A stretch of DNA of 59,791 bases, counting the filler. It is 7 parts of 7 records of this genome, joined end to end, with 100 filler letters (N's around TTAATTAATTAA, not from the genome) between each part and the next. Parts side by side here need not be neighbours in the genome. Positions count along the whole stretch, not along the records: positions 48,348 to 54,297 come from SRR31156797_51441; 6 more parts are not named here. One strand, 5' to 3'. Made by a program: the position numbers and the translations under genes. This document shows positions 11,280-54,297 of the stretch, one piece after another. The notes under the pieces were generated by a model, which was not told the DNA's origin, did not search any database, and saw only the letters and a program-made list of their open reading frames with translations. Within the stretch, counting starts at the first letter, position 1; each line of letters opens with the position of its first letter.

Positions 11280-11292
11280 GGGCTCCTCCTTC

Positions 11293-11781
11293 TCAGGACC
11301 TTGCATCCTTGCCGGCGGCGGGCCGCCCGCTGCCTTTGATAGAGACCAGAACCCTGAGGCCTCCGTATCGTGTCATAAAAGGGATAGCTATAACCGGCAC
11401 GCCCCGTTCCCAGCGGAATTTGTATTTCTCTCCAATGATCACCCCGGGAAGGGATATTTCTATCCTCTGGTCCAGGTACTGCTTGGCGTTTCCGGCGATG
11501 ATGTTGACCATCTCCCCTACAGCGTCCACCAGATCCCGGGAGAGGGCCCGGTAGCGAACCCCCGCGAAGAGGGTCCCTATCTCGATGGCCGTATTCCGGG
11601 AGAAGTTGAGGACGATCGTTCCCTTGACCTCTCCCGCCAGACCGATCAGCGCCGAGACATCTGATATGTTGTCTGGCTCTCGCTCTAAGTAGGGCTTGTA
11701 GTTTTCGATCTCCATGGACAGGTAGTCCCGGAAAAAGGTCAGGGTGGATTGCAGAAAGGGATTGATATACTCGGCATTCAT
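11293..11781 (-). CDS. cheX: Chemotaxis phosphatase CheX
   Basis: MNAEYINPF start, VSALIGLAG, DAVGEMVNIIAGNAK (ExxN), ISLP. Confidence 0.9.
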   Translation of the reverse strand: MNAEYINPFLQSTLTFFRDYLSMEIENYKPYLEREPDNISDVSALIGLAGEVKGTIVLNFSRNTAIEIGTLFAGVRYRALSRDLVDAVGEMVNIIAGNAKQYLDQRIEISLPGVIIGEKYKFRWERGVPVIAIPFMTRYGGLRVLVSIKGSGRPAAGKDARS

Positions 11782-11805
11782 AGCTGTCTCTCCATAGGGG
11801 ATTTT

Positions 11806-12198
11806 TTATCTGCGTATGTCTAAGAAAGGGTTCACCTTTTCCCAGAGGATGCGGGATTTGATGGGCTTGATCATATAATCCGTCACCCCCGCTTTGATGG
11901 CCTCTATTACGTTGTATTTTCCCGCTTCGGCGGTGACCATGATGATGGGAGTGTTCTGGTAGCGTTCGATGAGCCTCAGGGTTTTGGTCAGATGGAGCCC
12001 GTTGAGATCGGGCATATTCCAGTCGATGATGAAGAGGTCTATGTCCACCTCTTTTACCAGCTTCAGGGCCGCGAGTCCGTTCTCGGCGTGATATATATCC
12101 TTTTCCTTGAATCCTTTTTCTATCAGGAGGTTCGTATGTAAGCGCCTGATAACCTTGGCATCATCACAGATCAAAACCTTCATACCCATGTTATTCAC
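11806..12198 (-). CDS. cheY: CheY-like single-domain response regulator
   Basis: LICDD, DWNMP, TPIIMVTAE, YMIKP. Confidence 0.85.
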   Translation of the reverse strand: MNNMGMKVLICDDAKVIRRLHTNLLIEKGFKEKDIYHAENGLAALKLVKEVDIDLFIIDWNMPDLNGLHLTKTLRLIERYQNTPIIMVTAEAGKYNVIEAIKAGVTDYMIKPIKSRILWEKVNPFLDIRR

Positions 12199-12421
12199 CT
12201 CTTCTAGGTAGTTTTTATGCTAATGAATCCTACAAAGCTATAAGTCAAGCACTTGGATTTTTATCAGTACCACGGCAATTCAGGTTATAAAGGTTGGTAT
12301 ATCGTAAATGTCTATATTGATTTTTTGCCGCAGTCGTTCCCCGCAGGGGCTTAAACATTGGTCCTATAGTAAGAACCCCGGCCATCCATACCATAACGGC
12401 GGTTGACTGGGGCGGTTCCTC

Positions 12422-12931
12422 TTATGGGGTGGCCAAGGCCTCACTGCTGAAAAGGTAACTGATATCATCATTGGACTGAAGTTCTAAGCAGCTTCCTTCC
12501 GCATCCAAGGTATAGTAGAGCAAAACTTCGGTTTCGAAATCGAACCCGCTTTGAATCATCTCATGTTCATTGCTCCACCAACCCTTTGATATGCCGAAAG
12601 CCAAAAGAGCGTCATCGTCATACCAGCCCTCTTCATTGGAGGTGATATCTTGTCCGCTGACATAGACTTTCTCAAGATCAATGGTAAAGGAATTCCCAGA
12701 TTCTTTATCCAAATCGTAGCGTCGGAAGGGGCTGTAGACTCCCTCATCTTTAAAGTAGACAGTACCGTCATCGTCGGTGAAATCATACTTCCAGAAATCG
12801 TCTCCATCAAATTCATACCAGATACCCGCATAATCCTCATTCATGGAAGAACCGTCGTCATCATCGCAGGAGGCGAATACGAAGAGAAGGGAAAAAAACA
12901 GAATCGATAGCCATACTCTTTTCATGGACAA
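12422..12931 (-). CDS. Acidic hypothetical lipoprotein
   Basis: Signal peptide with FASC lipobox followed by DDDDG; GGAG RBS; more AT-rich than its neighbours. Confidence 0.7.
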   Translation of the reverse strand: MSMKRVWLSILFFSLLFVFASCDDDDGSSMNEDYAGIWYEFDGDDFWKYDFTDDDGTVYFKDEGVYSPFRRYDLDKESGNSFTIDLEKVYVSGQDITSNEEGWYDDDALLAFGISKGWWSNEHEMIQSGFDFETEVLLYYTLDAEGSCLELQSNDDISYLFSSEALATP

Positions 12932-13357
12932 CTCCTAATATAAGATTTATAGTCATTGTATAATTATAAAAGCGTTATGTCATGCTAAAAAGCATTAATA
13001 ATTGGCATGAGATGTTAAAAAAGCGCATATGGATGCTTTATTCGATTTGGGCGACACTGTATTGGATGACGCTTCGTTGATAGGGGGAAGGAGCCGCTTC
13101 GCTGACGGAAGAGCTGCCTCCGTCATTAGAGGAAGAGACGAGAAACAGGAGGGGGAGGAGAAGCGGCCAATCTCTTTTGGGGATGGTGACGATTAGGGCT
13201 CTGCCTTAAGGGATCATCTTTTTTCCAGAGGCTTTTGCGGCATCGAAAGCCCCCATGGGAGCGCTGCTTCCAAACCTCTTGTTCAAGAAACTCAACAAGG
13301 GGTTGCAGTAGGCTGAACGAGGAGACTGCGAGCCGGCGTCTCCGCTTATCGGGCGGT

Positions 13358-13693
13358 TCAGATCAGGGGGGTCACCTGGGCGAAAGCCTTGAAGCTGCTC
13401 TCCAGATGCTCTACCTCGTCATCGCTCAAGAGATCCAGCCAGCGGCCGATGCGGGCCCGGGTGCTCTTGTTTTCGGTTACCTGGGATCCGTCCAGCAGGT
13501 ATTCCACCGTCGTATCCAGTGCCTTGGCTACCGCCAGCAGATGGTCCGCCCGGGGGATGCGCCCTCTGTACCATCCGGAGATCGTCCCTATGGGAACTCC
13601 CGACTGCTGGGAGAGCCAGGGGCGTTTCTTGTTCAATCGCGTCAGTAGCAAAGACATTCTCAGTTGATAGGAGTCATCGTAATTTTCCAACAT
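13358..13693 (-). CDS. XRE/Cro-CI family HTH regulator
   Basis: LSQQSGVPIGTISGW..GRIPRADHLLAVAKALDTTVEYLL. Confidence 0.85.
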   Translation of the reverse strand: MLENYDDSYQLRMSLLLTRLNKKRPWLSQQSGVPIGTISGWYRGRIPRADHLLAVAKALDTTVEYLLDGSQVTENKSTRARIGRWLDLLSDDEVEHLESSFKAFAQVTPLI

Positions 13694-13876
13694 TTGCTGA
13701 ATTTACCATATTTTTAGCATAATTTGCACCGGTAAAATATTCTTTTTGTTTTCAGGCGTTTATGCGTTAAATTATAGGAATCATGACTTTTTTAATAGTT
13801 TTTTACTTTTTGATATAAATTGCGTCTTTTTTGATGCTTTTTTAATATTAACTCAAGTGTAAGGAATCGTTCATCC

Positions 13877-14896
13877 ATGTTGAAAATTGAAAACCTCGAG
13901 AACCTATATGTGCGGGATATAGCCTATACGCAGTGCAGGCAGATCCATCGTAGAATCGCGACGATCAAGACATTGGCATTGGTTACCCTCATCCTTCTGA
14001 TCGTCCTCTTCAAAAAGGACGCCCGCCTCTTCATTTACGAGATCCTGGTATTCGCCTTGCTGGGTTCCCTGCCCATCAAATTCTGCTACTCCCCCAACGT
14101 GCAGCTTGTGCGGCTGGTGATCTATCCCATTGTCCTGATTCAGATCCTCTTCGGTATCCTGGTCCGTCCGGGGTCGGAGCTCTCCATAGTCCGCTACGCC
14201 CTGGTCCTCTTCTACCTGGGGGTCCTGCCCCGGAGCTTCAAAGCAGATAAGATCATCCTCTTCAGCGCCCTCACCCTGGGCTTCGTCACGGAGCTATTGG
14301 AGAAGATTTTCCTACACAGCGGCGAGCCCAGGATCTTCTATCCCATCTTCGTCTTCACCTTCTCCCTCTTCTTCGTAGCCACCAACGAGGTGCGGATCCG
14401 GCAGAGTCAGAGCCACCTGCTCTACGATCCTGTTTCGGGCTTGTACAATCTCTCTTTCCGGGACTATGTTCTGCGGAGCCTTGAATCCCAGGGGGCGGAT
14501 GATTTCTATCTAATGGGGATCAAGATCCAGTCTCTGAAGCGTATCAACGAGACCTACGGCTATCAGTTCGGGGACCGCCTGATCCGGGCGGTGAGTTTTA
14601 TCGTGAAGAAGGAATCGTCCCCCCGGGCCTGGTGCTTCAGGACCGGCGGGGGCGAGCTGACCCTGATCCTGCCTGATATGAGCTTCGAGGACTCCCTCGC
14701 CCTGGCCGGCGCCGTCCGCAGCTCCCTGGACCAGGAGGGCTTCTGCAGCGGCATCTGCGATAAGATCGCCTTCGATATCGCCCTGGTTTCCAGCGAGATC
14801 CAGCCGTTCGATGAAGGATCGGCCACCCTGGACAAGCTGGAGACCGCCTTCTGCGAGGGCCGTCGTTCCCAAGAGGATAAGATCCTGGTCCTGTAG
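13877..14896 (+). CDS. Multi-TM protein with degenerate GGDEF domain
   Basis: About six TM segments, then DPVSGLYN, KRINETYGYQFGD and RTGGGEL in place of GG(D/E)EF. Confidence 0.85.
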   Translation: MLKIENLENLYVRDIAYTQCRQIHRRIATIKTLALVTLILLIVLFKKDARLFIYEILVFALLGSLPIKFCYSPNVQLVRLVIYPIVLIQILFGILVRPGSELSIVRYALVLFYLGVLPRSFKADKIILFSALTLGFVTELLEKIFLHSGEPRIFYPIFVFTFSLFFVATNEVRIRQSQSHLLYDPVSGLYNLSFRDYVLRSLESQGADDFYLMGIKIQSLKRINETYGYQFGDRLIRAVSFIVKKESSPRAWCFRTGGGELTLILPDMSFEDSLALAGAVRSSLDQEGFCSGICDKIAFDIALVSSEIQPFDEGSATLDKLETAFCEGRRSQEDKILVL

Positions 14897-14983
14897 GGGG
14901 ATGGGGGTACCGATGGAAGCCAGCCGCCGGTATTTCCCCGGCGGCTGCCGGGGAGCGGGATCGGTATCAATCTTTATAATAGC

Positions 14984-15091
14984 TCAATCGAAAACGATGG
15001 TCTTGTTTCCGAACACAAGGATCTTGTGCTCCAGATGGAGCCTGACTCCCGTGGAGAGGACGTGCTTTTCCAGGTTCCGTCCCTTTTCCAC
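14984..15091 (-). CDS. purU: Formyltetrahydrofolate deformylase, C-terminal fragment (contig edge)
   Basis: Manual translation VEKGRNLEKHVLSTGVRLHLEHKILVFGNKTIVFD* matches the PurU C-terminal pattern. Confidence 0.8.
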   Translation of the reverse strand: MEKGRNLEKHVLSTGVRLHLEHKILVFGNKTIVFD

Positions 15092-15092
15092 C

Positions 15093-15192
15093 NNNNNNNN
15101 NNNNNNNNNNNNNNNNNNNNNNNNNNNNNNNNNNNNTTAATTAATTAANNNNNNNNNNNNNNNNNNNNNNNNNNNNNNNNNNNNNNNNNNNN
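15093..15192. other. Artificial contig linker
   Basis: N-run, TTAATTAATTAA (stops in all frames), N-run; 100 nt. Confidence 0.99.
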
Positions 15193-16467
15193 ATCCAGGG
15201 TGGTGCCGGCAAAGGAGGCCACGAACACGCCCATGACCACCAGGGCGATCTTGAAGGAGATGCCGGTGGAAGCGATCATGTTGGCGGAGCCGTTAACAAA
15301 GGCGCCCACCTTGGAGCCAAGACCGGCAGCCGCGGCCCAGGAGGAGTAATGGGTGGACCAGGCCGCGATGCCCGTGAGGGTCTCTCCGGACTTGGTGGTG
15401 TACCCCATGCCGATACCGGCGGCCACGGCAATGATAACCAGGGTGGCAAGGGAGCCTTCCATGAGCATGGAGCCGTACCCGACAAACAGGGCGTCGGTCT
15501 CCTTTCTTACCTGCTTGGACGAGGTACCCGAGGAAACCAGGGAATGGAACCCGGAGATGGCGCCGCAGGCAATGGTGATGAACAGGAACGGCCACATGGG
15601 CGGCGCCTTGGCCGGAGATACCTGGACGGCCGGGGCAACGATCTCGAGGCTGCCGCTGAAGGCCGAGGCCAGGACGCCTGCGATCAGCAGGGCCATGGCA
15701 ATGACCAGCTGGTGGGAGTTGATGAAGTCCCTTGGCTGGAGCAGGGTTGTCACCGGCAGGGTGGAGGCGATGAAGGCGTAGATCAAAAGAAGGATCGTCC
15801 ATACACCGGTGGGCGGAATCCCGGCCACGGCCGGCATCTTGATGGGAATGTAGGCGCCGATGGCAACCGTGACGTACATGACGCCCACGGCGATGATGGA
15901 CCAGAGCACAATGTTCTTTCCCTTTGTATAGATGAGGTAGCCGAGATAGATGGCGATGGGGATCTCAAACCATACGGGAATGACAGAGGCGGGATACATG
16001 GCGAACACAACGGCGATGACCAGGCCGAAGATAGCGATCACGATCCAGAGCTCAAGGAATACCAGGAGGAAAAAAAGAAACCGGGTGCGGTTGTTCACAT
16101 ACTTGGAGGTGTAGTCGGCAATGGATTTGCCCTGGTTGCGCATGGAGATGACAAGGGCGCCGAAATCGTGGACCGCGCCCATGAAGATGCTGCCCACAAG
16201 GACCCAGATGAGGGCCGGCACCCAGCCCCAGATGATGGCCACGGCCGGTCCCACTATGGGGCCGGTTCCTGCGATGGAAGTGAAGTGGTGACCGAAGATC
16301 ACCTCTTTATTGGTGGGAACGTAGTCGACCCCGTCTTCCAGGTCCACCGACGGCGTGGAAGCCGCCGCCGACAGCTTGAAAATCTTCTCCCCGATGAACT
16401 TTCCGTAGAGATTGTACATCAACAGGTAACCGGCAAAAGACGCCACCATGATCAACAATGCATTCAT
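15193..16467 (-). CDS. cstA: Carbon starvation protein A family transporter (3' truncated)
   Basis: DGVDYVPT, FGHHFTSIAGTGPIVGP, LLQPRD, FITIACGAISGFH. Confidence 0.95.
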
Positions 16468-43546: not shown

Positions 43547-44524
43547 TCAAACACCATGGAGAAGCGCCCTTTTTACAAGGGTTCTTGCGATTTCGATTTT
43601 GTAAGCGTTTTTGCTGAGAGGAACGGCGTCCGCCACTGCGGCTTCGGCAGCGGCTTCGACGGTTTCATGGTTCATCCTTTGGCCGGATAGCAGCGCCTCG
43701 GCTTTCAATGCCCGGTAAGGCCCCGGCGCTACGGCGCCCAGCACAATTCGAGCATCAGAACAGATTCCGTCCCGGAGGACCGTCAACAACCCCACACTTA
43801 CAATGGCAAAATCGATGGACTCCCGCACCCGGTGCTTGATAAACACCTGCCGGTTTTCATCGGGCGGGCGGGGGATCCGGATTTCCGTGATGATCTCATG
43901 GGGCGCCAGCGCATTTCCCATGGGGTTATAAAAATCCATTACCTTCAGAAGCCGTTCACCATCCGGTCCGACGATTCGAATTTCCGCATCAAGGGCCGCC
44001 AGGGCAACGGCCGTGTCCGACGGGCAGACGGCGAAACAGCGTTTGCCGCCGAAGATGGCATGGTATCGGTTATCCCCCTTAACCGCTCGACACGGACCTT
44101 CGCCCTTGCGGCGGCATATGATGCGCCCCCCGATTTCATGGGGGTAGCGGTAATACCAGCAGCGGGTCTCCTGGGCCAGATTGCCGCCGAGGGAGCCCAT
44201 ATAACGGATTTGGGGCGTAGCGACCGACAGGGCAGCCTGGGCAAGTATCGGACAATCTTCCTTCACTTCCGGGGAATCGATCATGTCCGCAAGTTTGGCC
44301 ATGGCACCTATTTTTAATCCTGCCTCATCCATATGGATGTAATCCAGGCCGGGGATACTTTTGAGATTGATGATCAGTTCCGGATAGACCGCCGGGGCTT
44401 TCGTCTTGAGCAACCCGAGCAGATCGGTCCCCCCCGCCAGCAAGCGGGCCTTTTCTCCATATTCAACCAGCAATCTTATGGCCTGGGATAGGGATTTGGC
44501 ATCAATGTGCCGGAAAAGTTTCAT
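43547..44524 (-). CDS. Xanthine dehydrogenase family FAD subunit with Cys-rich insertion (PaoB/HcrB-like)
   Basis: LAGGTDLL, ATPQIR..GSLGGNL, RCWYYR..C..C..CFAVCPSD. Confidence 0.92.
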   Translation of the reverse strand: MKLFRHIDAKSLSQAIRLLVEYGEKARLLAGGTDLLGLLKTKAPAVYPELIINLKSIPGLDYIHMDEAGLKIGAMAKLADMIDSPEVKEDCPILAQAALSVATPQIRYMGSLGGNLAQETRCWYYRYPHEIGGRIICRRKGEGPCRAVKGDNRYHAIFGGKRCFAVCPSDTAVALAALDAEIRIVGPDGERLLKVMDFYNPMGNALAPHEIITEIRIPRPPDENRQVFIKHRVRESIDFAIVSVGLLTVLRDGICSDARIVLGAVAPGPYRALKAEALLSGQRMNHETVEAAAEAAVADAVPLSKNAYKIEIARTLVKRALLHGV

Positions 44525-44539
44525 GATATTTGATTCCCC

Positions 44540-46801
44540 TTATATCTTTCCCAAGGCTTTCAGAATTTTATCAGAGGTCAAGGGATATTCCATGATTCGG
44601 GTTCCGATGGCATTATTAACCGCCATAAGTACAGCGCTGGGACCCGGCGAAGTGGCGATCTCCCCTACCCCCACGGCCCCGAAACGGTGGCTGGGGATGG
44701 GCGTTTCCAGGATCACATTGGTAAAATACGGCATGTCGGCAAAGGTGCGCCATTTGTAATCCACCATATTGCCGTTCAAGGTGCGTCCGGTCTTTTCATC
44801 CAAGACCGTCTCCTCGAAAATGGCCGTATCCAGGCCGGCCGAACCCAGGGCGCCGTGAAGCTGCCCTTCAAGGGCCTTTGGGGATATGATGCGGCCGCAA
44901 TCGGTGGCGTTGACCACCCTCACCAGATCCACCCTCCCCGTCTCCGTATCCACCGCCACTTCAACGAAGGTCATGAGGAAATTGCAGAGGGAATAATCGG
45001 GATCAAACCGACCCTCGCCCGTCAGGGTGCGGGTGATCCCCGTTATTCTGCGCCATGGGATTCTTTTCTCTGGCCGTCCGAACATAAATATCATGCCGTC
45101 TTCCGTATCCAGTTGCCCGGGCGTGGCCTCGAACCGGTGCGCCGCCATTTCCAGCAGTTTACGCCGGGCATCTTCCGCCGCCGCGATCACGGCCGACCCC
45201 ACCGCATAGGTACCTCGGGATCCCATGAGTCCGAATTCAAAGGGATTCACATGGGTATCAGGAGGTGACATACACACCTTTTCAAGGGGCAGCTTCAATA
45301 CCTCGGCGGCCATTTTGCACAGGCTGCTCCGTTGCCCGGGACCGGATTCGGAGACACAGCAGTGCACCATGGCCCGCCCGTCCGGGGTCAGCTTTATGAG
45401 GGCCTCGGATGCGTCCTCTCCCACGTCGGCATTGCCGTGCACGCCCAGGCCCACGCCCCGCCGCTTCACGCCGTCCAGGAGGCTGGGTTTTCGCCATCCC
45501 CGCCATTTATCCTTCCAGCCGAAGGCCTCGGCACCCTTTTCCATGGCCTTTGTAAAAGCTATCCCCCTGTAGGTCCACCAGTTCCCTTCCCGCCAGAAAT
45601 AGCCGTCTCCCGCCTTGACGAAATTTTTCTTGAAGAATTCAAGAGGGTCGAGGCCGGCCTTTTCCATGGCCAGGGATACCACCGGCAGGATGGAACTCTC
45701 CAGTTCCTGGCCCCCGTACCCCCTGACGATGCCGGAAGGGGATCGGTTTGTGCAGACCAGTTTGGGGTTCAGGTCCCAGTTCTTACACCGCAACACCAGC
45801 TGCAGTTCACCGCAGCCCACGGCGATCTGGAAAGGCCCCGATTCCGACCCCGATCCCGTGTTCACAAGCCATTGGCCCGAGACGGCGGTTAAAGTACCGT
45901 CCCGCTTCATGCCCACCTTGGCGTGAATCCGTGAACCCAAACGCAGGGAGTAGGCATGAAAATGCTCTTCCTTGGTATAATAGACCTTTACCGGTCGCCC
46001 GGTGGCCCTGGACAGGAGGGCCGCATATCCCACCGGCGTCATGTTGGCGTTTTTAGTGCCGTAACTGCCGCCGCAATGGGTGCTGATGGCCCGCATATCG
46101 GCCATGCCGATGAAGGGGATGCCGATGAAGCGGTTGAAGGCGATGGACTGGGAAGGGGTATAGATGGTCAGGCAGTCCGGCGTCTCCCACGTGGCGATGA
46201 CGCCCGGCGGTTCCGGGGGCAGCGGATTGGGAAATATTTCGTAACCACATGTTCCTTCGGCAACAACGTCAGCTTCGGCAAATCCCTGATCCACATTGCC
46301 CATATGAAGACCGTTCAGCAGCTTGGGTTCATATACGGGTGGATCCCCGGGGTATGTGTTATTTGGATATTGGCCGTATATAGGTGGGTCATCAGCCTCG
46401 GTGGATGCTTCCACATCATAAACCGCGGGCAACGGTTCGTACCCCACCTCGATTAATTCCAATGCGGCCTCGGCGATATCCGCGGTATCGGCGGCCACAA
46501 TGGCGACTGCATCGCCCACATAACGGACCTTGCCGTCCAGCACTCTGATGTGTTTGGGAATCCCCCATTCCCAGGCCGGGATGTCCTTATGGGTAAGCAC
46601 CGCCCTGACGCCCGTTAACGACTTGGCGCGACTGCAATTCATGTGGGCGACATGGGCGTGTGCATGGGGACTTCGAAGGATTTTACCAAAAAGCATTCCT
46701 GGAAGTTTTATATCATCAATATAGTTTGCCTTGCCGGTGACAATGTCCCGGGCATCCTTGCGAGGCGTTTCTTTCCCGATGTGTCGGTATTTTTCAGTCA
46801 T
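44540..46801 (-). CDS. Xanthine dehydrogenase family molybdopterin-binding subunit
   Basis: LRSPHAHA, GGSYGTK, RGYGG, MGSRG, GVGE. Confidence 0.93.
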   Translation of the reverse strand: MTEKYRHIGKETPRKDARDIVTGKANYIDDIKLPGMLFGKILRSPHAHAHVAHMNCSRAKSLTGVRAVLTHKDIPAWEWGIPKHIRVLDGKVRYVGDAVAIVAADTADIAEAALELIEVGYEPLPAVYDVEASTEADDPPIYGQYPNNTYPGDPPVYEPKLLNGLHMGNVDQGFAEADVVAEGTCGYEIFPNPLPPEPPGVIATWETPDCLTIYTPSQSIAFNRFIGIPFIGMADMRAISTHCGGSYGTKNANMTPVGYAALLSRATGRPVKVYYTKEEHFHAYSLRLGSRIHAKVGMKRDGTLTAVSGQWLVNTGSGSESGPFQIAVGCGELQLVLRCKNWDLNPKLVCTNRSPSGIVRGYGGQELESSILPVVSLAMEKAGLDPLEFFKKNFVKAGDGYFWREGNWWTYRGIAFTKAMEKGAEAFGWKDKWRGWRKPSLLDGVKRRGVGLGVHGNADVGEDASEALIKLTPDGRAMVHCCVSESGPGQRSSLCKMAAEVLKLPLEKVCMSPPDTHVNPFEFGLMGSRGTYAVGSAVIAAAEDARRKLLEMAAHRFEATPGQLDTEDGMIFMFGRPEKRIPWRRITGITRTLTGEGRFDPDYSLCNFLMTFVEVAVDTETGRVDLVRVVNATDCGRIISPKALEGQLHGALGSAGLDTAIFEETVLDEKTGRTLNGNMVDYKWRTFADMPYFTNVILETPIPSHRFGAVGVGEIATSPGPSAVLMAVNNAIGTRIMEYPLTSDKILKALGKI

Positions 46802-47337
46802 GATGCTTCTTTTTCGCCATTTCCGTCTTTCGCCGCGTCCAATACCGCCTCCACCACCTCATAGTGGGAGATGCAACGGCAATAGTGTCCCGCCAACGCC
46901 TGTTTCACCTGCTCTTCGCCGGGGTCCGGTTCCCTGTCTAATAACGCCTTGGCGCTCATGAGAATCCCCGGTGTGCAGAAACCGCACTGAAAAGCGGTAT
47001 GATCCATAAAGGATTGTTGCAGCGGATGCATCCGGCCGGTTTCCTGATCCTCCAGCCCCTCAATGGTGATAATTTCGGCGTCATTGCACTCGACCGTCAG
47101 GGTCATGCAGGACAGGATCGGTTTTCCGTTCATGAGTACCGTGCATGATCCGCATGATCCCTGGTCGCAGCCGATTTTGGTTCCCGTAAGCCCCAGCGTT
47201 TCCCGAAGGGTGTGGGCCAGGGTATCCGTTGGGGTTATGGCGCCGTGGGTCAGGCCCACCGCAAAGTCATGGGACTTTCCGTTGACCGTGAGATGGACGA
47301 TGCTACCTTCCCGCTCATTTTCTGCTGCTTTGTACAT
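46798..47337 (-). CDS. Xanthine dehydrogenase family 2Fe-2S subunit
   Basis: GTKIGCDQGSCGSCTV, QCGFCTPG, CRC; GAGGA RBS favours ATG 47337. Confidence 0.93.
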   Translation of the reverse strand: MYKAAENEREGSIVHLTVNGKSHDFAVGLTHGAITPTDTLAHTLRETLGLTGTKIGCDQGSCGSCTVLMNGKPILSCMTLTVECNDAEIITIEGLEDQETGRMHPLQQSFMDHTAFQCGFCTPGILMSAKALLDREPDPGEEQVKQALAGHYCRCISHYEVVEAVLDAAKDGNGEKEAS

Positions 47338-47374
47338 AGATGTATTCCTCGAATGAGACATGGTCGTGAACGCC

Positions 47375-48109
47375 TTAGAAATCCTCCTCAACCAAGCACT
47401 CATAATTCCGGAAGGTTCTTGCGATCATGATGTCCATGGAACTTAACGCTTTTCCTTCCCGGTTGATGCGCTCGAATATCTCCCGTACCGCCGGGATGTC
47501 AAACCCTTCCATATGGATTAAGGATAAATTGTAATCTGAAAAAACATGCACCAGTTGCCGGAGGTTATTTTCGATGAGTCGGTCGGCCCCCGGTTCCCGC
47601 ATAACGCGCGCCAGTACCTGACCTCCGCCGTTCATCATCCGGCTCAAGGTGATCAGGAATGCCGGATTGACCGTTCGTTTCCGTCGGTTCAATTCATGGG
47701 CAAAAAAGAAATTTTCGTTCACCGCGTCGAAGAAAAGGGAGTAGTCAAAATCCCTTTCCCCCTTGACGCTTCCTTTCCCTCCCAACAAGGGCATCAGCAA
47801 GGCGGTGGCCCGCTGTTGACCGTCCAGGATATACACCCTCTTGGCATCTTCACGGGGGGTTGCCCCCTTCTTTTCAAGGATAAATCCGCCTATTTTGCGG
47901 TGAATGTTGAGGCGGATATCCGTTTCCCAGCAGAGGATGCTGCCGATGGGGTAAAATCGATAAATGCTTTCCCAAAGCTTGATAATGTCATCCCGATCCC
48001 AAACAAATTCCCGTTGGAATGAGGGGATCAGGATCCTGTTTTGGGCCAGAAGGGTCGTAAACTCGACGATCTTCTTCTCCCGTGCATGAATGGAACGGTT
48101 CGTTATCAC
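47375..48109 (-). CDS. Stand-alone DUF262 (GmrS-like) domain protein
   Basis: IPSFQREFVW, YPIGS, LDGQQR, IFERINREG; AGGAG RBS; protein ends just after the domain. Confidence 0.88.
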   Translation of the reverse strand: MITNRSIHAREKKIVEFTTLLAQNRILIPSFQREFVWDRDDIIKLWESIYRFYPIGSILCWETDIRLNIHRKIGGFILEKKGATPREDAKRVYILDGQQRATALLMPLLGGKGSVKGERDFDYSLFFDAVNENFFFAHELNRRKRTVNPAFLITLSRMMNGGGQVLARVMREPGADRLIENNLRQLVHVFSDYNLSLIHMEGFDIPAVREIFERINREGKALSSMDIMIARTFRNYECLVEEDF

Positions 48110-48347: not shown

Positions 48348-48349
48348 AC

Positions 48350-48559
48350 CCGTTTACAGTGGATAAGCGTCGTGGAAAAACAGTGCGCCTGCCGAATCTT
48401 GATAAATCGGATTTTTACAGCTACTTGAAGAATATACCGAAGCTTACCCAAAAGCTTGAAAAGGCAAAGGATGTTGCAGCTATTCCAAACGAGGTTCATT
48501 ACTTGATGGCTGTATTGATCCGTGGCGGCGTTTTCAGTGGTGAAAGTGATAAAAAATAA
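48350..48559 (+). CDS. cas7f: Type I-F CRISPR backbone protein Cas7f/Csy3, C-terminal fragment (contig edge)
   Basis: Frame open from the edge: PFTVDKRRGKTVRLP..DFYSYL..HYLMAVLIRGGVF, matching the Csy3 C-terminal DFY..H(Y/F)xxAxLI(R/K)GG signature; directly upstream of cas6f. Confidence 0.88.
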   Translation, partial: PFTVDKRRGKTVRLPNLDKSDFYSYLKNIPKLTQKLEKAKDVAAIPNEVHYLMAVLIRGGVFSGESDKK

Positions 48560-48577
48560 GTATTTCGAGGAACTGTC

Positions 48578-49192
48578 ATGTTAAAACATTATTTGGAGAT
48601 TGTAGCCCAACCTTACGATGATGATTTCCATTTCATTATCAATAAGGTTTTTAACCGATTGCATGGAATTATCAGTCAATACGAGTTGAATCTCGGATTG
48701 TCATTTCCTAAGATGTCACCACGGTCTCCCGGAGAGATGATTCGAGTTTTTGGAGTTTCAAATCAATTGCAGCAGGTTCTGGATAATCACGGTATGCGGG
48801 CTCTCGCACAAAGGCGTATGATCATTATTTCCGAGATACGTGAGGTTCCTTTGAAAGCTCGTTCCATAGCCTATTTAAGATGCCGTAAACCAGAAAAAGT
48901 ATCAAAGTTTAAAATCAAAAGGACCGTAAAAAGATTGCGGATGCGTAGTTTGAGTCGTGGTGAAAGCTTGGCCGAAGGAGTGGATGAAAAAATTAAAAGT
49001 TCAATGTTAAAAAAAGCTGACAATATTGGAAGTTATCCATTTTTTATGGTTGAAAGGAGGGATTCAAAATTTCCGATTTATATCAAGCGGGAAGACCCTG
49101 AAAATTTTAAACAGAAAGAAGTGGGAAAATTTAGCAGGTATGGATTGGGGAATGGAGTTGAAAATGAAATCAGTACGGTTTTTGAATTTTAA
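48578..49192 (+). CDS. cas6f: Type I-F CRISPR endoribonuclease Cas6f/Csy4
   Basis: HYLEI, LH with His at residue 29, GLSFP, G..IRVFG, EVP, Arg/Lys-rich helix, FSRYGL; GAGG RBS. Confidence 0.92.
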   Translation: MLKHYLEIVAQPYDDDFHFIINKVFNRLHGIISQYELNLGLSFPKMSPRSPGEMIRVFGVSNQLQQVLDNHGMRALAQRRMIIISEIREVPLKARSIAYLRCRKPEKVSKFKIKRTVKRLRMRSLSRGESLAEGVDEKIKSSMLKKADNIGSYPFFMVERRDSKFPIYIKREDPENFKQKEVGKFSRYGLGNGVENEISTVFEF

Positions 49193-49328
49193 AAAACCTT
49201 CCTTTTCGAGCCGGATGGAAAAATCTTTAAGAATCAGATAGTTATAGGATCGTAGTTTAGAACAAAGTTTTTGTGATGAATTGGGTATATGGTTTTGAAT
49301 TTACAGCTTTTTGTCGTTTTTGTCGCCC
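49193..49328 (+). promoter_or_regulatory. CRISPR leader (136 nt, AT-rich) with IHF-like site
   Basis: Lies between the cas6f stop and the repeat; AATCAGATAGTTA at 49232-49244 fits the IHF consensus WATCARNNNNTTR. Confidence 0.75.
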
Positions 49329-49356
49329 GTTATCCGCCGCACAGGCGGTTTAGAAA
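49329..49356 (+). CRISPR. Single type I-F CRISPR repeat GTTATCCGCCGCACAGGCGGTTTAGAAA (no second repeat seen)
   Basis: 28 nt, GTT start, TTAGAAA end, 5-bp stem CCGCC/GGCGG with 5-nt loop GCACA in the canonical Csy4 substrate position. Confidence 0.88.
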
Positions 49357-49358
49357 TT

Positions 49359-52220
49359 TTAGAGGCATTGGGCCATGATTTCAACGGGATGAATAACTGG
49401 GCTGTTCCAGAAGGCCTGCATCTGCATGGTGCAGGTGGGGCAGTCGGTTGCACCTGTATCCGCATTGGAGCTGTTTAGTTTTTGGATGAGATCGGAGCCT
49501 ATTTTTTGGCTTAGGTCAAAGTTCTTGGCCATCATGCCCCAGGTGCCGGCCATGCCGCAGCAGTGGCATTCCAGGGGATTTACCTCGATGCCGGGGAGGG
49601 CCTTGAGCATTTCAATGGAGCTTGTAGCCTCCTGCTGTACCTTGAGGTGACAGGGGGTGTGATAGACGATTTTGCGGTTGTTTTTCTTTAGAGGCTGTTG
49701 ATTTATATGAGTTTGGATGAGGCTTGTGCCGTGGATGGTTTTATCCGCCACTTCCCGGACCAGGCTGGTCTGGTTGAGGTACTGCCATTTGCTCTTCAGG
49801 GCAAGGCCGCAGGTGGAGCAGGTCACGGCAATGTGGTCCACCCTTTTTACTATATTCCCCCACTGTTTCAGGTTCTTTTCGATGGATGCCGAGGCTTTGT
49901 CCGTCATTCCTTTGGAGAGCATGGGGAGGCCGCAACAGCGGGCGGTCGGGACATATACGTTCATTCCCAGGGCTGAGAGAACTTTGATGAATGCCATGGC
50001 TGTTTCGGGTCTGATCCAGCTTGCGTAACAGCCTGGAAAATAGAGCACCTTTTTGCCCTGGGGCTGTTTTTTGGCTGGCAGGATGGTGAATGCCTTGGCG
50101 GTTTTCTTTATTTCTTGTGGGGCCTGGTCGCCCAGCCTTTTTTTAAGGGGCTCTTTTGCAAAGAGGACCAATGGCCGTCGGGAGGAGATTCCCAGGAGTT
50201 TTTCTCCCGCCTGCTTGAAAAAGGAATTGTCCGCCATGGGAATCACCAGGTGGGAGATACCGTGGGTTAGGCGTGCGGCCGTGTCCGCCGAGGTGAGGAG
50301 GCGGTCCGTGAGGCCGGGGCCGAACTTTCTGGCGTAATCCGCCTTGGCCGCCATGACCATCCTGGGGATGTTCACCTGGGAGGGGCATTCATTGTGGCAG
50401 CTGCCGCAGTTGATGCAGTGGTTGAGCACATGGAACAGGCCGTCGGCATAGGCTTGTTTTTCTTCGATGGCGCCGCTGATCAGGGCCCTTAGGATGTTGG
50501 CCTTGGCCTTGGGGGCGGCGGCTTCGTCCCGGGTGGCCTTGTAGACCGGGCACATGCGTGTGGCGTGGGTGACGGTGGTGCATTTGGAGCAGCCGTGGCA
50601 CTTTTCCACCTCGGTCAGGAAGCTGTTGTTTTGAAATACCGGGCTCTGGTAGAAGTTTTTTGCCTGGTACTCTGGCCCGTATCTCAGGGAACGGGTGAAG
50701 CCGTCTTTGGCTTCGCCGGTGATGATATCGGGGTTGAGCAGGTTGTCCGGGTCCAGGATCTGCTTGGTTTTTTGGAACAGCTCAAATATGTCCGGGTACT
50801 GGGCGCGGATGTAGGGGCTTCTCAAGCGACCGTCCCCGTGCTCCCCGGAGATAGCGCCGCCAAGGGAGTTCACAAGCCGGAACACGCCGTCGGCAATGGG
50901 TTGCAGGAGATCGACATCCTGCTTGTCCTTGAGGTTGAGCATGGGGCGGGTGTGCATCAGCCCCTTGGAGATGTGGCCGAAGAGCACGAAGTTGACCCCG
51001 AGGTCCCCCAGGAGTTTGTAGAGCCCCTGGAAATATTCCACCAGCCGGTCCACGGGCACGGCGGCGTCCTCGATGAGGGCCAGCACCTTTTTTTCGCCCT
51101 TGAGCCTGTATAGGATGGGGACGGCGGCCTTGCGGATGGCCCAGAAACGGGCCTGCTCCTCCCTGGATACCGCGAGGTTCAGGGTGTCGGACCAGTTGTT
51201 CTCCCGGATCAGGCTTTTTGCTTTTTGGGCTTTTTCCAGGCAGGCCTCGGGGGTGTGCTCGTCAAACCCGATGAGAAGCAGGTTGTCTATATCCTTTGGC
51301 ATGGCCGCGTCCAGGGCGGGATCGTTCTTCCTTGCCAGGCCCAGGAGGGATTTGTCCATCACCTCGATGCCGCAGGGATTCAGGGGAAGGATTTTTTCTA
51401 CAGCCCTGGTGGATGAGACCATGTCCTTGAAATAGGCCACCACCAGGCTGTCGTGGGCGGGTTTTTCAATGAGCTTGAATTTCAGGCGGGTGATGATGCC
51501 CAGGGTGCCTTCGGCGCCCGCAAAGAGTTTCCTCAGGTCAAGGCGGCCGTTGGTGACAAGTTTCCTGAGATTATAGCCGGTGCTGTTGAACCGCACCGGC
51601 GGATAGGCGTTTTCGATCCGGTCGGCGTTGTTTTGGTACAGGTCGAACAGGGGGCGCAGGGGGGCGGGCAGCCGGGATTTATCCCGGGACATGAGCTCCG
51701 ACAGGGTGATGGGGCTGCCGTCGGCAAGGACCATGTCGGCATCCAGGCAATAGTCGCCCACATTGCCGTACTTGACCGAGTGGGCGCCGCTGGCGTTGGT
51801 GTTGTACATGCCGCCGAAGCTTGCGTACTCACCGCTGGAGGGGTCCGGGGGAAAGAAGAGGCCGGAGTCCTTGAGGGCCTCGTCCAGCTCTCCCATGCGG
51901 AAGCCCGGCTCGCACTCAAAGCAGTGGCCGTCAAGGTCCAGGCGGAGGAGCCGGTTCATGTGTTTGGTGAAGTCCACGACAATGCCCCGGCCCAGGGCGG
52001 AACCGCATACGCCGCTGCCGGTTCCCCTGGCGTGGACACTGAGGTTGTGCTTCCTTGCAAATGAGAGGATCTCGATCACATCATCCCGGTCCGCGGGATA
52101 GACCACGCATTCGGGTAGAAACTTGAAGATGCTGGCGTCCGTGGCAAGCATGTGACGCCTGAAAAAATCCTGGTGAATTTCTCCCTTTAACCTGCCTGCA
52201 AAGGAATCAAAATCGGCCAT
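49359..52220 (-). CDS. FAD-binding and Fe-S oxidoreductase (GlcD-GlcF fusion; D-lactate/glycolate dehydrogenase-like)
   Basis: RGTGSG, PDPSS, GAEGTLG, GEHGDG, CHGCSKC, CINCGSC..CP, two CCG domains; likely ATG 52220. Confidence 0.92.
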   Translation of the reverse strand: MADFDSFAGRLKGEIHQDFFRRHMLATDASIFKFLPECVVYPADRDDVIEILSFARKHNLSVHARGTGSGVCGSALGRGIVVDFTKHMNRLLRLDLDGHCFECEPGFRMGELDEALKDSGLFFPPDPSSGEYASFGGMYNTNASGAHSVKYGNVGDYCLDADMVLADGSPITLSELMSRDKSRLPAPLRPLFDLYQNNADRIENAYPPVRFNSTGYNLRKLVTNGRLDLRKLFAGAEGTLGIITRLKFKLIEKPAHDSLVVAYFKDMVSSTRAVEKILPLNPCGIEVMDKSLLGLARKNDPALDAAMPKDIDNLLLIGFDEHTPEACLEKAQKAKSLIRENNWSDTLNLAVSREEQARFWAIRKAAVPILYRLKGEKKVLALIEDAAVPVDRLVEYFQGLYKLLGDLGVNFVLFGHISKGLMHTRPMLNLKDKQDVDLLQPIADGVFRLVNSLGGAISGEHGDGRLRSPYIRAQYPDIFELFQKTKQILDPDNLLNPDIITGEAKDGFTRSLRYGPEYQAKNFYQSPVFQNNSFLTEVEKCHGCSKCTTVTHATRMCPVYKATRDEAAAPKAKANILRALISGAIEEKQAYADGLFHVLNHCINCGSCHNECPSQVNIPRMVMAAKADYARKFGPGLTDRLLTSADTAARLTHGISHLVIPMADNSFFKQAGEKLLGISSRRPLVLFAKEPLKKRLGDQAPQEIKKTAKAFTILPAKKQPQGKKVLYFPGCYASWIRPETAMAFIKVLSALGMNVYVPTARCCGLPMLSKGMTDKASASIEKNLKQWGNIVKRVDHIAVTCSTCGLALKSKWQYLNQTSLVREVADKTIHGTSLIQTHINQQPLKKNNRKIVYHTPCHLKVQQEATSSIEMLKALPGIEVNPLECHCCGMAGTWGMMAKNFDLSQKIGSDLIQKLNSSNADTGATDCPTCTMQMQAFWNSPVIHPVEIMAQCL

Positions 52221-52920
52221 TGTTCTTTGTTGCCTTCCTGAGAGTGTAATTGAGATGGTCTGCCATGGCGGCGGATGCCTCATCGGGATTTCTTTCCGCA
52301 ATGGCCTTGACGATGCGGCGGTGCTGACGGGTCAGTTCCTCCTTGAGCGCCGGGTCTTTTTTACGGTCTGCATAGACCTTTTGGGTGACGGTGGAAAGCC
52401 AGGTCAGAATGGAACCCATCATATGGATGAGAAAGGGGTTGTGGGTTGCCGAGGTGATCCGGCTGTGGAGCTTGACATTGAGTTCATGCCCCATTTTCCC
52501 TGCTGTATGGTTCTCCATCTCACCTATGACTTTTTGGAGCGCCTCGATTTCTTCATCGGTGGCCCGGGTGGCCGCGGTGGACGCGGCCCAGGTCTCCAGG
52601 ACGATACGGATTTCCATGAGGCCCGCCAGGAAATCCTTTTCCCCGGTCATCTCTTCCATGTAGTCCTGGATGGGGGCCTGGGTGACCGATTTCACAAAGG
52701 TGCCGTCCCCCCGTTTCTGTTCCACAAATCCGAGGCATTCCAGTTTCAGGATCGCTTCCCTTACGGAGGAGCGGCTCACATTGAAAAGGCTCGTCAGCTC
52801 CATCTCCGGGGGGATTTTCTGGCCGGGAAGAAGTTTGCCGGTGATGATGAGGGTCTTGATCTGTTCAAAGACCTTGTCACTGACCTTTTTCTGGGGAATC
52901 TTTTTAAAAAGACGTTCCAT
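52207..52920 (-). CDS. FadR/GntR family regulator
   Basis: LLPGQKIPPE..FNVSRSSVREA..RGDGTFV; FCD-type C-terminus. Confidence 0.93.
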   Translation of the reverse strand: MERLFKKIPQKKVSDKVFEQIKTLIITGKLLPGQKIPPEMELTSLFNVSRSSVREAILKLECLGFVEQKRGDGTFVKSVTQAPIQDYMEEMTGEKDFLAGLMEIRIVLETWAASTAATRATDEEIEALQKVIGEMENHTAGKMGHELNVKLHSRITSATHNPFLIHMMGSILTWLSTVTQKVYADRKKDPALKEELTRQHRRIVKAIAERNPDEASAAMADHLNYTLRKATKNNGRF

Positions 52921-52925
52921 GGGCG

Positions 52926-54297
52926 CTACTCCGTTTGCTGTTCAGGGGCGGTCTTTACCTGTATGAGGTAAAGGGCGATGAAGAGCACGGCCCCGCCGGC
53001 GTGGAGATGGATTTGAGGCCACAGGAACAGGATCGCCGAGATCAGATAGGCCACCCTGAAAGCCCAGTTCAGGTGTGTCTTGTGGTAGCCCTCGAAAAAT
53101 ACGGCAAAAGAGAAGAGACCGAACAGCCCGCTGATGGCGGTCTCCGCCACAAGCAAGGCCGATCCCTCAAAGAGGAGGGGGGTGTAGACAAACAAAAGGG
53201 GAATGATGTAAAGGCCCTTGGCAAGCTTCCAGGATTCAAATCCCGTGGCCAGGGGCGGGCTGCCGGAGATGCCCGCCGCGGAATAGGCCGCAAGGCAGAC
53301 CGGCGGGGTGACGTTGGCATCCTGGGAATACCAGAAGATGAGCATGTGGGCGCCGATCAGGGACGCTCCCAGCATCTCCAGGGACGGGGCCGCCAGCACC
53401 GCCAGAACGATGTAGGAGGCCGTCACCGGCAGGCCCATGCCCAGCACAAGGGAGGCAAGGGCGATGAGAACGATGGTGACCATGAGGCTGCCCCCGGCGA
53501 TGGAGGAGATCATGATGGAAAACTTGATGCCCGCGCCCACCATGAGCACAACGCCGATGACAATGCCTGAACACAGGAGGATGACACCCGTGGTGACCAT
53601 GCCCCTGGCCCCTTCGGCGAATGCGTCCAGGATATCCTTGGGGTACATGCGGGTCTTTTTGTTGAGCCAGCTGGCCGCGACAATGGCGGCGATGCCGGCG
53701 CAGGCGGAATAGGTGGGGGTGAACCCGGTCATCAGCAGGCCGATGAGAACCCCGATGGGGATGAAGAAATTCCATCCCTCCCTGAGCACTTCCCTGACGG
53801 TGGGGATCTCATGGTCTTCCATGGGTTGCAGCCCGAGCTTCTTGGCCCGCAGGTGGACGAAAAACACCACGCTCATGAAATACATGACGGCCGGAATGAT
53901 GGCCACGCCCACTATGGTCAGGTAGGGAATCTGGGTCCACTGGCTCATGATGAATGCGCCGGCGCCCATGATGGGGGGCATGAGCTGGCCGCCGGTGGAG
54001 GCCGCGGCTTCAACGGCCCCTGCAAACTTGGGGCCGAATCCCACCCGCTTCATCAGGGGAATGGTGATGGAGCCCGTCCCGACGGTGTTGGCAACGGCGC
54101 TGCCCGAGATGGAGCCCATGAGGCCGCTGGCAAATACCGCCATCTTGGCAGGTCCCCCGATCATCCTGCCCATGACCGCGATGGAGAGGCGGATGATGAA
54201 ATCCCCGGCGCCGGACTTGAGAAGAAAGGCTGCAAACAGCACAAACAGGAACACAAAGGTGGAGGATATGGTGGCGATGGTGCCGAAGATGCCGTCC
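52926..54297 (-). CDS. TRAP transporter fused permease (4TM/12TM), 5' truncated
   Basis: GGPAK..GSISGSAVAN, EAAASTGGQLMPPIMGAGAF, LGMGLP, TPPV. Confidence 0.93.

Follow-up and report, generated by a model that had tools for sequence, protein, structure and literature searches.

The CRISPR-Cas systems of type I-F, to which the locus described here belongs, are divided in the passages of the 2025 classification that deal with them into I-F1 to I-F4, with an intermediate between I-F1 and I-F2 (PMC12669027). The sections of a 2024 review on host range describe I-F3 CRISPR-associated transposons (CASTs) as residing mostly in Vibrionaceae, extending across the gammaproteobacteria and confined to them, and, cyanobacteria apart, as the sole known CAST group (PMC11406308). 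Our locus lies at positions 48350-49356 of a 59791-nt stretch of DNA (the window) and consists of the 3' end of cas7f (csy3), a complete cas6f (csy4), a leader and a single CRISPR repeat, beside Desulfobacteraceae-like genes. The first-pass annotation had likened it to the I-F3 CASTs; an I-F3-type CAST in Desulfobacterota would extend RNA-guided transposons beyond gammaproteobacteria and cyanobacteria, but the evidence points the other way. With a probability of roughly 0.62, we read the locus as the 3' end of the type I-F effector operon of a sparsely sampled lineage, laterally acquired in the Desulfobacteraceae-like genome of a bacterium that resembles sulfate reducers, and as a conventional interference-type system rather than a CAST.

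Five plasmid loci with verified gene context served as anchors for the comparison. Plasmid p1_508 of Photobacterium damselae (NZ_CP090497.1, 599 kb; L001) carries an I-F locus at 8532-15579 with Cas3 (1005 amino acids, with HD, DEAD (helicase) and Cas3 C-terminal domains), Csy1 and Csy2 as separate genes, Csy3, Cas6f and an array of 10 repeats; within 30 kb there is no annotated cas1, and the locus looks like an adaptation-less plasmid I-F variant. The anchor on a plasmid of Acetobacter ascendens is a canonical I-F1 system (cas1-cas3f-csy1-csy2-csy3-cas6). Each of the three I-F3 CAST anchors (L005, L006, L007) has TniQ and a fused large subunit adjoining csy3-cas6f. The annotated Tns genes are TnsB and TniB in the Vibrio penaeicida element and TnsA, B and C in that of Aeromonas salmonicida pS44-1 (Tn6900); in the stretch fetched of the Shewanella xiamenensis plasmid element, TniQ and cas genes only are annotated. 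The nearest named relatives of both proteins are found in the I-F systems of the Nitrosococcaceae, namely Nitrosococcus watsonii, N. halophilus Nc 4, Ca. Nitrosoglobus and Ca. Nitrosacidococcus tergens (WP_197744985.1). We found nothing in print on this I-F lineage, leaving aside the supplementary host tables of CAST surveys, and nothing on locus architecture in the literature on I-F in Nitrosococcus or Desulfobacter. The passages of one paper that concern the anti-CRISPR proteins place AcrIF17/AcrIF16 homologues in several families including the Desulfobacteraceae (PMC7648647).

The cas7f-cas6f locus

The window (1-59791) is composed of seven contigs joined via N/TTAATTAATTAA linkers, and the cas genes sit on the sixth, which spans 48348-54297 (5950 bp). 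The cas block contains the following features:

48350..48559, plus strand: 3' fragment of cas7f (csy3), the last 69 codons and the stop codon; the contig starts within the gene, in frame
48578..49192, plus strand: cas6f (csy4), complete, 204 amino acids (Pfam Cas_Csy4, TIGR02563)
49193..49328, plus strand: AT-rich CRISPR leader of 136 nt, between the cas6f stop codon and the repeat
49329..49356, plus strand: single type I-F CRISPR repeat, GTTATCCGCCGCACAGGCGGTTTAGAAA, 28 nt (Rfam CRISPR-DR4)

The translation of 48350-48556 (69 amino acids) matches the last 54 positions of the Pfam Cas_Csy3 profile (275-328 of 328) with an E-value of 2.2e-11. The cas6f gene starts eighteen bases past the cas7f stop codon, and its product scores 90.3 bits against Pfam Cas_Csy4 (E 2.2e-25) and 66.1 bits against TIGR02563, for which the cut-off is 36.25. 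The order of the two genes, Cas7f (Csy3) and then Cas6f (Csy4), is that of the type I-F family. The histidine of the Cas6f catalytic site is kept within an LHG motif, of which H29 and G30 are invariant in a 20-sequence alignment of the clade. The PADLOC models do not separate the I-F variants, and a search of the ESM Atlas with Cas6f met generic Cas6f clusters only.

The repeat matches Rfam CRISPR-DR4 over 28 of 28 positions with 36.3 bits (gathering score 35; E 3.1e-6) and folds into a 5-bp hairpin, CCGCC/GGCGG, of -9.7 kcal/mol (z -2.96). A length of 28 nt, a hairpin of 5 bp and a 3' part of 8 nt, which would become the 5' handle of the CRISPR RNA (crRNA), are those of a type I-F repeat. Allowing up to three mismatches, it has one match in the window (none expected), and no further repeat was found within 60 nt to either side of 49329-49356. 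A degenerate second repeat, seen by eye near 49242-49264, was supported neither by Rfam at E ≤ 1 nor by the three-mismatch search and was discarded. The single repeat, as assembled, could not yield a complete crRNA; either the array was collapsed in assembly or the locus is a remnant. By our own count on the printed sequence, the array follows cas6 at about 118-128 nt in the I-F3 anchors, near the 136 nt found here, so leader length is not diagnostic of the subtype and was rejected as a marker. The repeat sequence was rejected as well, the repeats of the verified I-F3 anchors likewise ending, in our own reading, in GGAAA or AGAAA.

The cas7f tail, cas6f, leader and repeat of the first-pass annotation are thus confirmed, with Pfam, TIGRFAM and Rfam matches for the genes and the repeat, and its end at 49356 is correct. 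Its description of an AT-rich block joined to GC-rich genes also holds, with a GC content of 38% for the cas block (48348-49328) and 58% for the rest of the contig (49357-54297).

Placement of the Cas6f and Cas7f proteins

A word search with Cas6f found only two proteins, P0001 (91% identical) and P0002 (79%). At E ≤ 1e-3, an exhaustive profile-free search returned 114 Cas6 representatives, among which identity drops to 41% directly after the 79% relative; the lineage is sparsely sampled. A first quick tree of 111 rows, from which P0007, P0024, P0030, P0054, P0059, P0090 and P0097 had been dropped for lying outside 160-245 amino acids, placed the Cas6f of this locus (the query) within a 21-row group. 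The careful tree was calculated with IQ-TREE under LG+C20, and its supports are given as ultrafast bootstrap (UFBoot) / SH-like approximate likelihood ratio test (SH-aLRT). It contains 74 of 116 available rows, picked from the 111 and the three CAST anchors with every clade represented: the query, the five plasmid anchors and 68 of the 115 Cas6 database proteins (P0001-P0115). A group of the query with P0001 and P0002 has 100/99 support, and this triplet falls within a 21-row clade (99/96) that also takes in the Cas6 proteins of Photobacterium and of Ca. Nitrosacidococcus tergens (P0008). All three I-F3 anchors lie, with seven representatives, in a separate 10-row clade (100/99), and the Acetobacter I-F1 Cas6 in a third. 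When the triplet was held together with the ten CAST rows, the approximately unbiased (AU) test gave a p-value of 0.036 for a loss of 34.9 in log-likelihood. From the CAST clade, two members were compared with the PDB: they reach 102-158 bits with each CAST Cas6 chain and match no Csy4 chain at E ≤ 1e-3. The membership of the I-F3 CAST clade, or special kinship with it, that had been proposed for the locus is not supported by this placement.

In phmmer searches of the PDB, Cas6f itself scored 39.4-39.9 bits (E about 4e-9) with TniQ-Cascade Cas6 chains (6pij, 6pig, 6v9q, 6lnb, 6uvn) and 20.9-21.8 bits (E 1-2.5e-3) with chains named 'Csy4 endoribonuclease' (4al6, 6b44, 2xli and others); we take the former entries to be from V. 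cholerae and the latter from P. aeruginosa. Over all CAST Cas6 chains in the PDB the range is 26-40 bits, and the shorter Csy4 chain 8k0k scored lowest, with an E-value of 0.21. The remark made at first pass that Cas6f is nearer to the Tn6677-type Cas6 than to Pseudomonas Csy4 is borne out by these scores (39.9 versus about 21 bits), and the Cas6f peptides then quoted are all in the translation.

The cas7f tail is 91% identical to P0116, a 140-residue fragment from a contig as long as that of P0001 (1561 bp), and 71-73% identical to full-length proteins of small metagenome contigs; with the full-length P0119 and P0123 the identity is 73% and 67%. The Csy3 proteins of N. watsonii, N. halophilus, Ca. 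Nitrosoglobus and Ca. Nitrosacidococcus tergens are 62-67% identical to it over all 69 residues and have the same 26-residue gap between the DFY motif and the conserved histidine. Judged by protein similarity, the named members of this I-F lineage are Nitrosococcaceae (Gammaproteobacteria). The Cas6 proteins of the Nitrosococcaceae, in contrast, are only 35-37% identical to the query, and their hosts are gammaproteobacterial, whereas the host here is Desulfobacteraceae-like.

In the PDB, P0119 and P0123 score 184-190 bits with Csy3 chains, 149-152 bits with 7u5d and 115-131 bits with the other CAST Cas7 chains; their lowest scores, 98-99 bits, are with Csy3 chains of shorter length. The alignment of the tail itself shows a single-residue gap with 7u5d, the printed stretch of which is identical to the Cas7 of A. 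salmonicida pS44-1, versus a 9-residue gap with the Csy3 chains. BLASTP of four full-length Cas7 relatives gave 34-37% identity with the two anchors of Cas3/Cas1 context and 27-31% with the three CAST anchors. The longest branch of a small Cas7 tree sets the CAST anchors apart (SH-aLRT 100); the two I-F1-context anchors are long-branched in it and their exact place is unsure. A tblastn search of plasmids with P0119 gave nothing above 38% identity. The best 20 listed records, at 32-38% identity and 148-208 bits, include Methylobacter, Vitreoscilla, Caballeronia, Pseudomonas and Legionella (gene context was checked for L001 and L002 only), and the listed Aeromonas I-F3 plasmid records rank below those 20, at 31% identity and 166 bits. 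The supposed kinship of Cas7 with I-F3 is not upheld, its relatives being nearer to the Csy3 chains and the Cas3/Cas1-context anchors; on these sequence comparisons, neither the Cas6 nor the Cas7 protein is a member of the I-F3 CAST clade.

Two traits had made the proteins look like those of a CAST. A manual count on the Cas7 alignment confirmed the gap of 26 residues between DFY and histidine in the query, and found it in nearly all of 18 database relatives (two are 1-2 residues shorter). Its standing as an I-F3 trait is lost, however, since the Cas3-bearing Photobacterium locus also has 26 residues; the Vibrio CAST anchor has 23, the Aeromonas CAST anchor 27 and the Acetobacter I-F1 protein 18. 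Several non-CAST rows also have the R..(S/T)RGE-type helix of Cas6. Because both traits are common to non-CAST I-F lineages, neither is diagnostic of a CAST. They take on a CAST-like appearance when only the Pseudomonas Csy proteins serve as yardstick, and their wide occurrence among non-CAST I-F systems makes them unfit as markers.

The locus resembles each of the described systems in part. With the I-F3 CASTs it shares the effector families, a short array about 120-136 nt after cas6, the long Cas7 gap, the R..RGE-type Cas6 helix and the highest raw PDB score for Cas6, but the Cas6 clades are separate, the CAST Cas7 proteins are less similar to the relatives of the query than those of the Cas3/Cas1-context anchors, and neither tniQ nor tns genes were seen in the window, which leaves no room for a transposon end beside the array. 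Canonical I-F1 systems have the same families (Cas_Csy3, Cas_Csy4, CRISPR-DR4), and their Csy3 chains give the full-length Cas7 relatives their best PDB scores, but their Cas6 is remote (the Csy4 endoribonuclease chains score about 21 bits) and the gap in the Cas7 anchor is shorter by the count above. The Photobacterium locus has the same Cas6 clade, the same Cas7 gap, the same repeat architecture and the repeat end TTAGAAA. It differs in its Cas6, which is 28% identical, in its Cas7, which is 34-37% identical to the Cas7 relatives of the query, and in its array, which lies beside cas3 and not after cas6.

Further searches added few relatives. Searches of genome and metagenome contig collections with Cas6f and with a three-sequence alignment found no relative locus, and Cas6f found no relative among viral contigs and, by tblastn, no match among phages; against plasmids it gave two records only. 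A Cas7 alignment matched 16 loci in viral contigs, all at most 39% identical and not of this lineage, and these were not used. Neither TnsA/B/C, TniQ and Cas8/5 of the CAST anchors (L005-L007) nor Cas1, Cas3, Csy1 and Csy2 of the other two anchors (L001, L002) gave more than noise at E ≤ 1 when run by tblastn against all seven window contigs; as these represent little of the genome, the negative carries little weight.

The host flank and its junction with the cas block

The remainder of the contig is taken up by three genes on the opposite strand:

49359..52301, minus strand: FAD-linked oxidase fused to 4Fe-4S and CCG domains, GlcD/GlpC-like (Pfam FAD_binding_4, FAD-oxidase_C, Fer4_8, CCG)
52207..52920, minus strand: GntR/FCD-family regulator (Pfam GntR, FCD)
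52926..54297, minus strand: TRAP transporter large permease DctM, truncated where the contig ends (Pfam DctM, E 1.1e-75)

The oxidase gene is convergent with the cas block. Its product is 88% identical to a protein labelled 'MAG: Desulfobacteraceae bacterium' (MAG, metagenome-assembled genome) and 83% identical to one labelled 'MAG: Desulfobacterium sp.', in line with the earlier assignment of the flank; the other named matches, at 51-57%, are mostly Desulfobacterales, with some Deferribacteres. The C-terminus, ...VEIMAQCL, ends as in close relatives (...AQCL), and 2 nt separate the end of the repeat (49356) from the stop codon at 49359-49361. By comparison with these homologues the stop codon is native and the gene intact, and the foreign block begins directly after it. 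The 2-nt spacing leaves no room for cargo or a transposon end, and no cargo or Tn7-like end lies between the array and the host DNA. At its other end, the oxidase reading frame as listed starts with TTG and has an N-terminus about 27 residues longer than all close homologues (941-963 amino acids); the true start is probably an internal ATG near 52220, with an overlap of about 14 nt with the end of the upstream GntR gene.

A Logan contig of 34,523 bp from run X1 covers 48348-53947 with no differences, bridges the junction between repeat and oxidase and extends to the left of the window contig by about 28.9 kb. It argues against a chimera created by binning or by a particular assembler, but it rests on the same reads. 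In two runs from other studies, X2 and X3, the cas7-cas6 region was matched only by short contig pieces, 224-405 nt long and about 90-95% identical, the stretches left uncovered being uninformative. The match of one X3 contig begins exactly with the repeat (49329) and is preceded by unrelated sequence, as it would be by a spacer in the array of a relative.

Two observations on run X3 may be added. Its oxidase-like contig stops at 49363, near the repeat/oxidase junction, and per-contig depth is about 3 for the cas7-cas6-like contigs and 20-44 for the oxidase-, GntR- and DctM-like contigs. The cas island may be present in only part of the related population, although contig depths are poor measures and give a weak hint.

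Alternative readings of the locus

If the locus is the end of a conventional effector operon, AT-rich cas DNA would have been acquired laterally and placed directly downstream of an intact FAD/FeS oxidase gene. Cas6f would cut the precursor crRNA at the base of the CCGCC/GGCGG hairpin, Cas7f would polymerise along the spacer and the Cascade complex would guide interference. Its partner would most likely be a nuclease of the Cas2-3 type, as in systems of I-F1 architecture, rather than a Tn7-like transposase; cas8f, cas5f, cas2-3 and cas1 would be expected upstream, and the system may be active. Support for an I-F1 architecture is indirect and comes from the Photobacterium clade-mate with its Cas3 and split Csy1/Csy2. 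This leaves a modest result, a laterally acquired, thinly sampled I-F module in a Desulfobacteraceae-like genome.

Several points weigh against this interpretation. The genes that define the subtype lie upstream, outside the window, and the subtype is unproven because they are missing from a contig that starts inside cas7f. The best raw PDB scores of Cas6f are with TniQ-Cascade chains. Gene context is known for one of the 21 rows of its clade, and that row is 28% identical to the query. The backbone of the tree between the clades lacks resolution, so that the 21-row clade may still be sister to I-F3, the p-value of the AU test is marginal, and the anchors with verified context cover no I-F2 or I-F4 (Cas8-HNH). 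The likeness to the Nitrosococcaceae is one of proteins. A mature crRNA needs more than one repeat, and a single one is present. Finally, the X1 contig probably stems from the same sample as the window, so its proof of the junction is not independent.

An RNA-guided transposon in Desulfobacterota, be it a very divergent I-F3 relative or the product of independent capture by a Tn7-like or other element, could have its tniQ and tns genes upstream of a contig that opens inside cas7. It would fit the very short array right after cas6, the foreign DNA (38% versus 58% GC) beside the 3' end of a conserved gene, the TniQ-Cascade chains at the head of the PDB scores for Cas6 and the long DFY-His gap common to the I-F3 anchors. 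The gap and the RGE-type helix, however, are shared with the Cas3-bearing system and other non-CAST rows, Cas6 stands outside the clade that unites the three verified CAST anchors, with the AU test in agreement, and the Cas7 relatives are less close to CAST Cas7 than to the Csy3 chains and the anchors with Cas3/Cas1 context. The 2 nt between repeat and stop codon fit neither a transposon end nor cargo, and tblastn at E ≤ 1 found no tns, tniQ or cas8/5 in the seven contigs, so we give this explanation little credence. The pages of one study that concern targets describe a search for protospacers in the 1 kb upstream of tnsA (10.1101/2020.07.02.184150). A second capture, independent of I-F3, is more speculative still. 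In that event a mobile element would have brought a Nitrosococcaceae-like I-F system into Desulfobacterota, the lone repeat with the 3' end of the oxidase gene as its 'spacer' would be a homing or self-directed guide, and the 28.9 kb to the left would hold transposition genes or a partner other than Cas3.

The linkage of the cas block to its flank might instead be an artefact, the assembler having joined the cas block of another organism, for instance a gammaproteobacterium, through k-mers shared at the array, such as those of a spacer that matches the 3' end of the oxidase gene, in which case the new host would be spurious. The composition switches exactly at the repeat, the lone repeat abuts the host stop codon at a distance of 2 nt, the window is made of binned contigs of mixed GC content (42% to 59% over the seven), and in run X3 the cas-like and oxidase-like contigs are separate, the latter ending at 49363. 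We nevertheless consider such a chimera unlikely, because the 34.5-kb Logan contig was independently built with a k-mer longer than the repeat and crosses the junction without differences, and no loose end appears there among the X1 matches listed. An exact shared stretch of about 30 nt would moreover be needed, so that a repeat or matching spacer would have to exist at the host locus anyway. If the linkage is real, the locus could still be a decaying remnant, from which a deletion removed the spacers and trailing DNA and in which guides are no longer made. A single repeat with no second one within 60 nt on either side, and a junction 2 nt from the host stop codon, are what such a deletion would leave. 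But cas6f is intact and has its conserved histidine, the reading frame of the cas7f tail is open as far as the stop codon, short-read assemblers often collapse arrays, and the X3 contig has other sequence before 49329, as expected of a spacer in the array of a relative; decay, too, we regard as doubtful. Most likely is a conventional interference-type system, its array either shortened in assembly or down to a single repeat.

Two minor observations concern the neighbouring contigs of the window. An isocitrate/isopropylmalate dehydrogenase and a membrane protein of the T2SSF family are encoded on the last contig (54398-59791), which has 42% GC and may come from a different organism than the contigs of 54-59% GC, the bin then being mixed. 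At the end of the contig that precedes the cas block, a protein with a GmrSD_N (DUF262) restriction-endonuclease N-terminal domain is encoded at 47375-48109 on the minus strand (E 1.7e-29), adjoining a three-gene cluster of the molybdopterin xanthine/aldehyde-oxidase type at 43547-47403. It is a further defence gene, on a contig that is not joined to the cas block.

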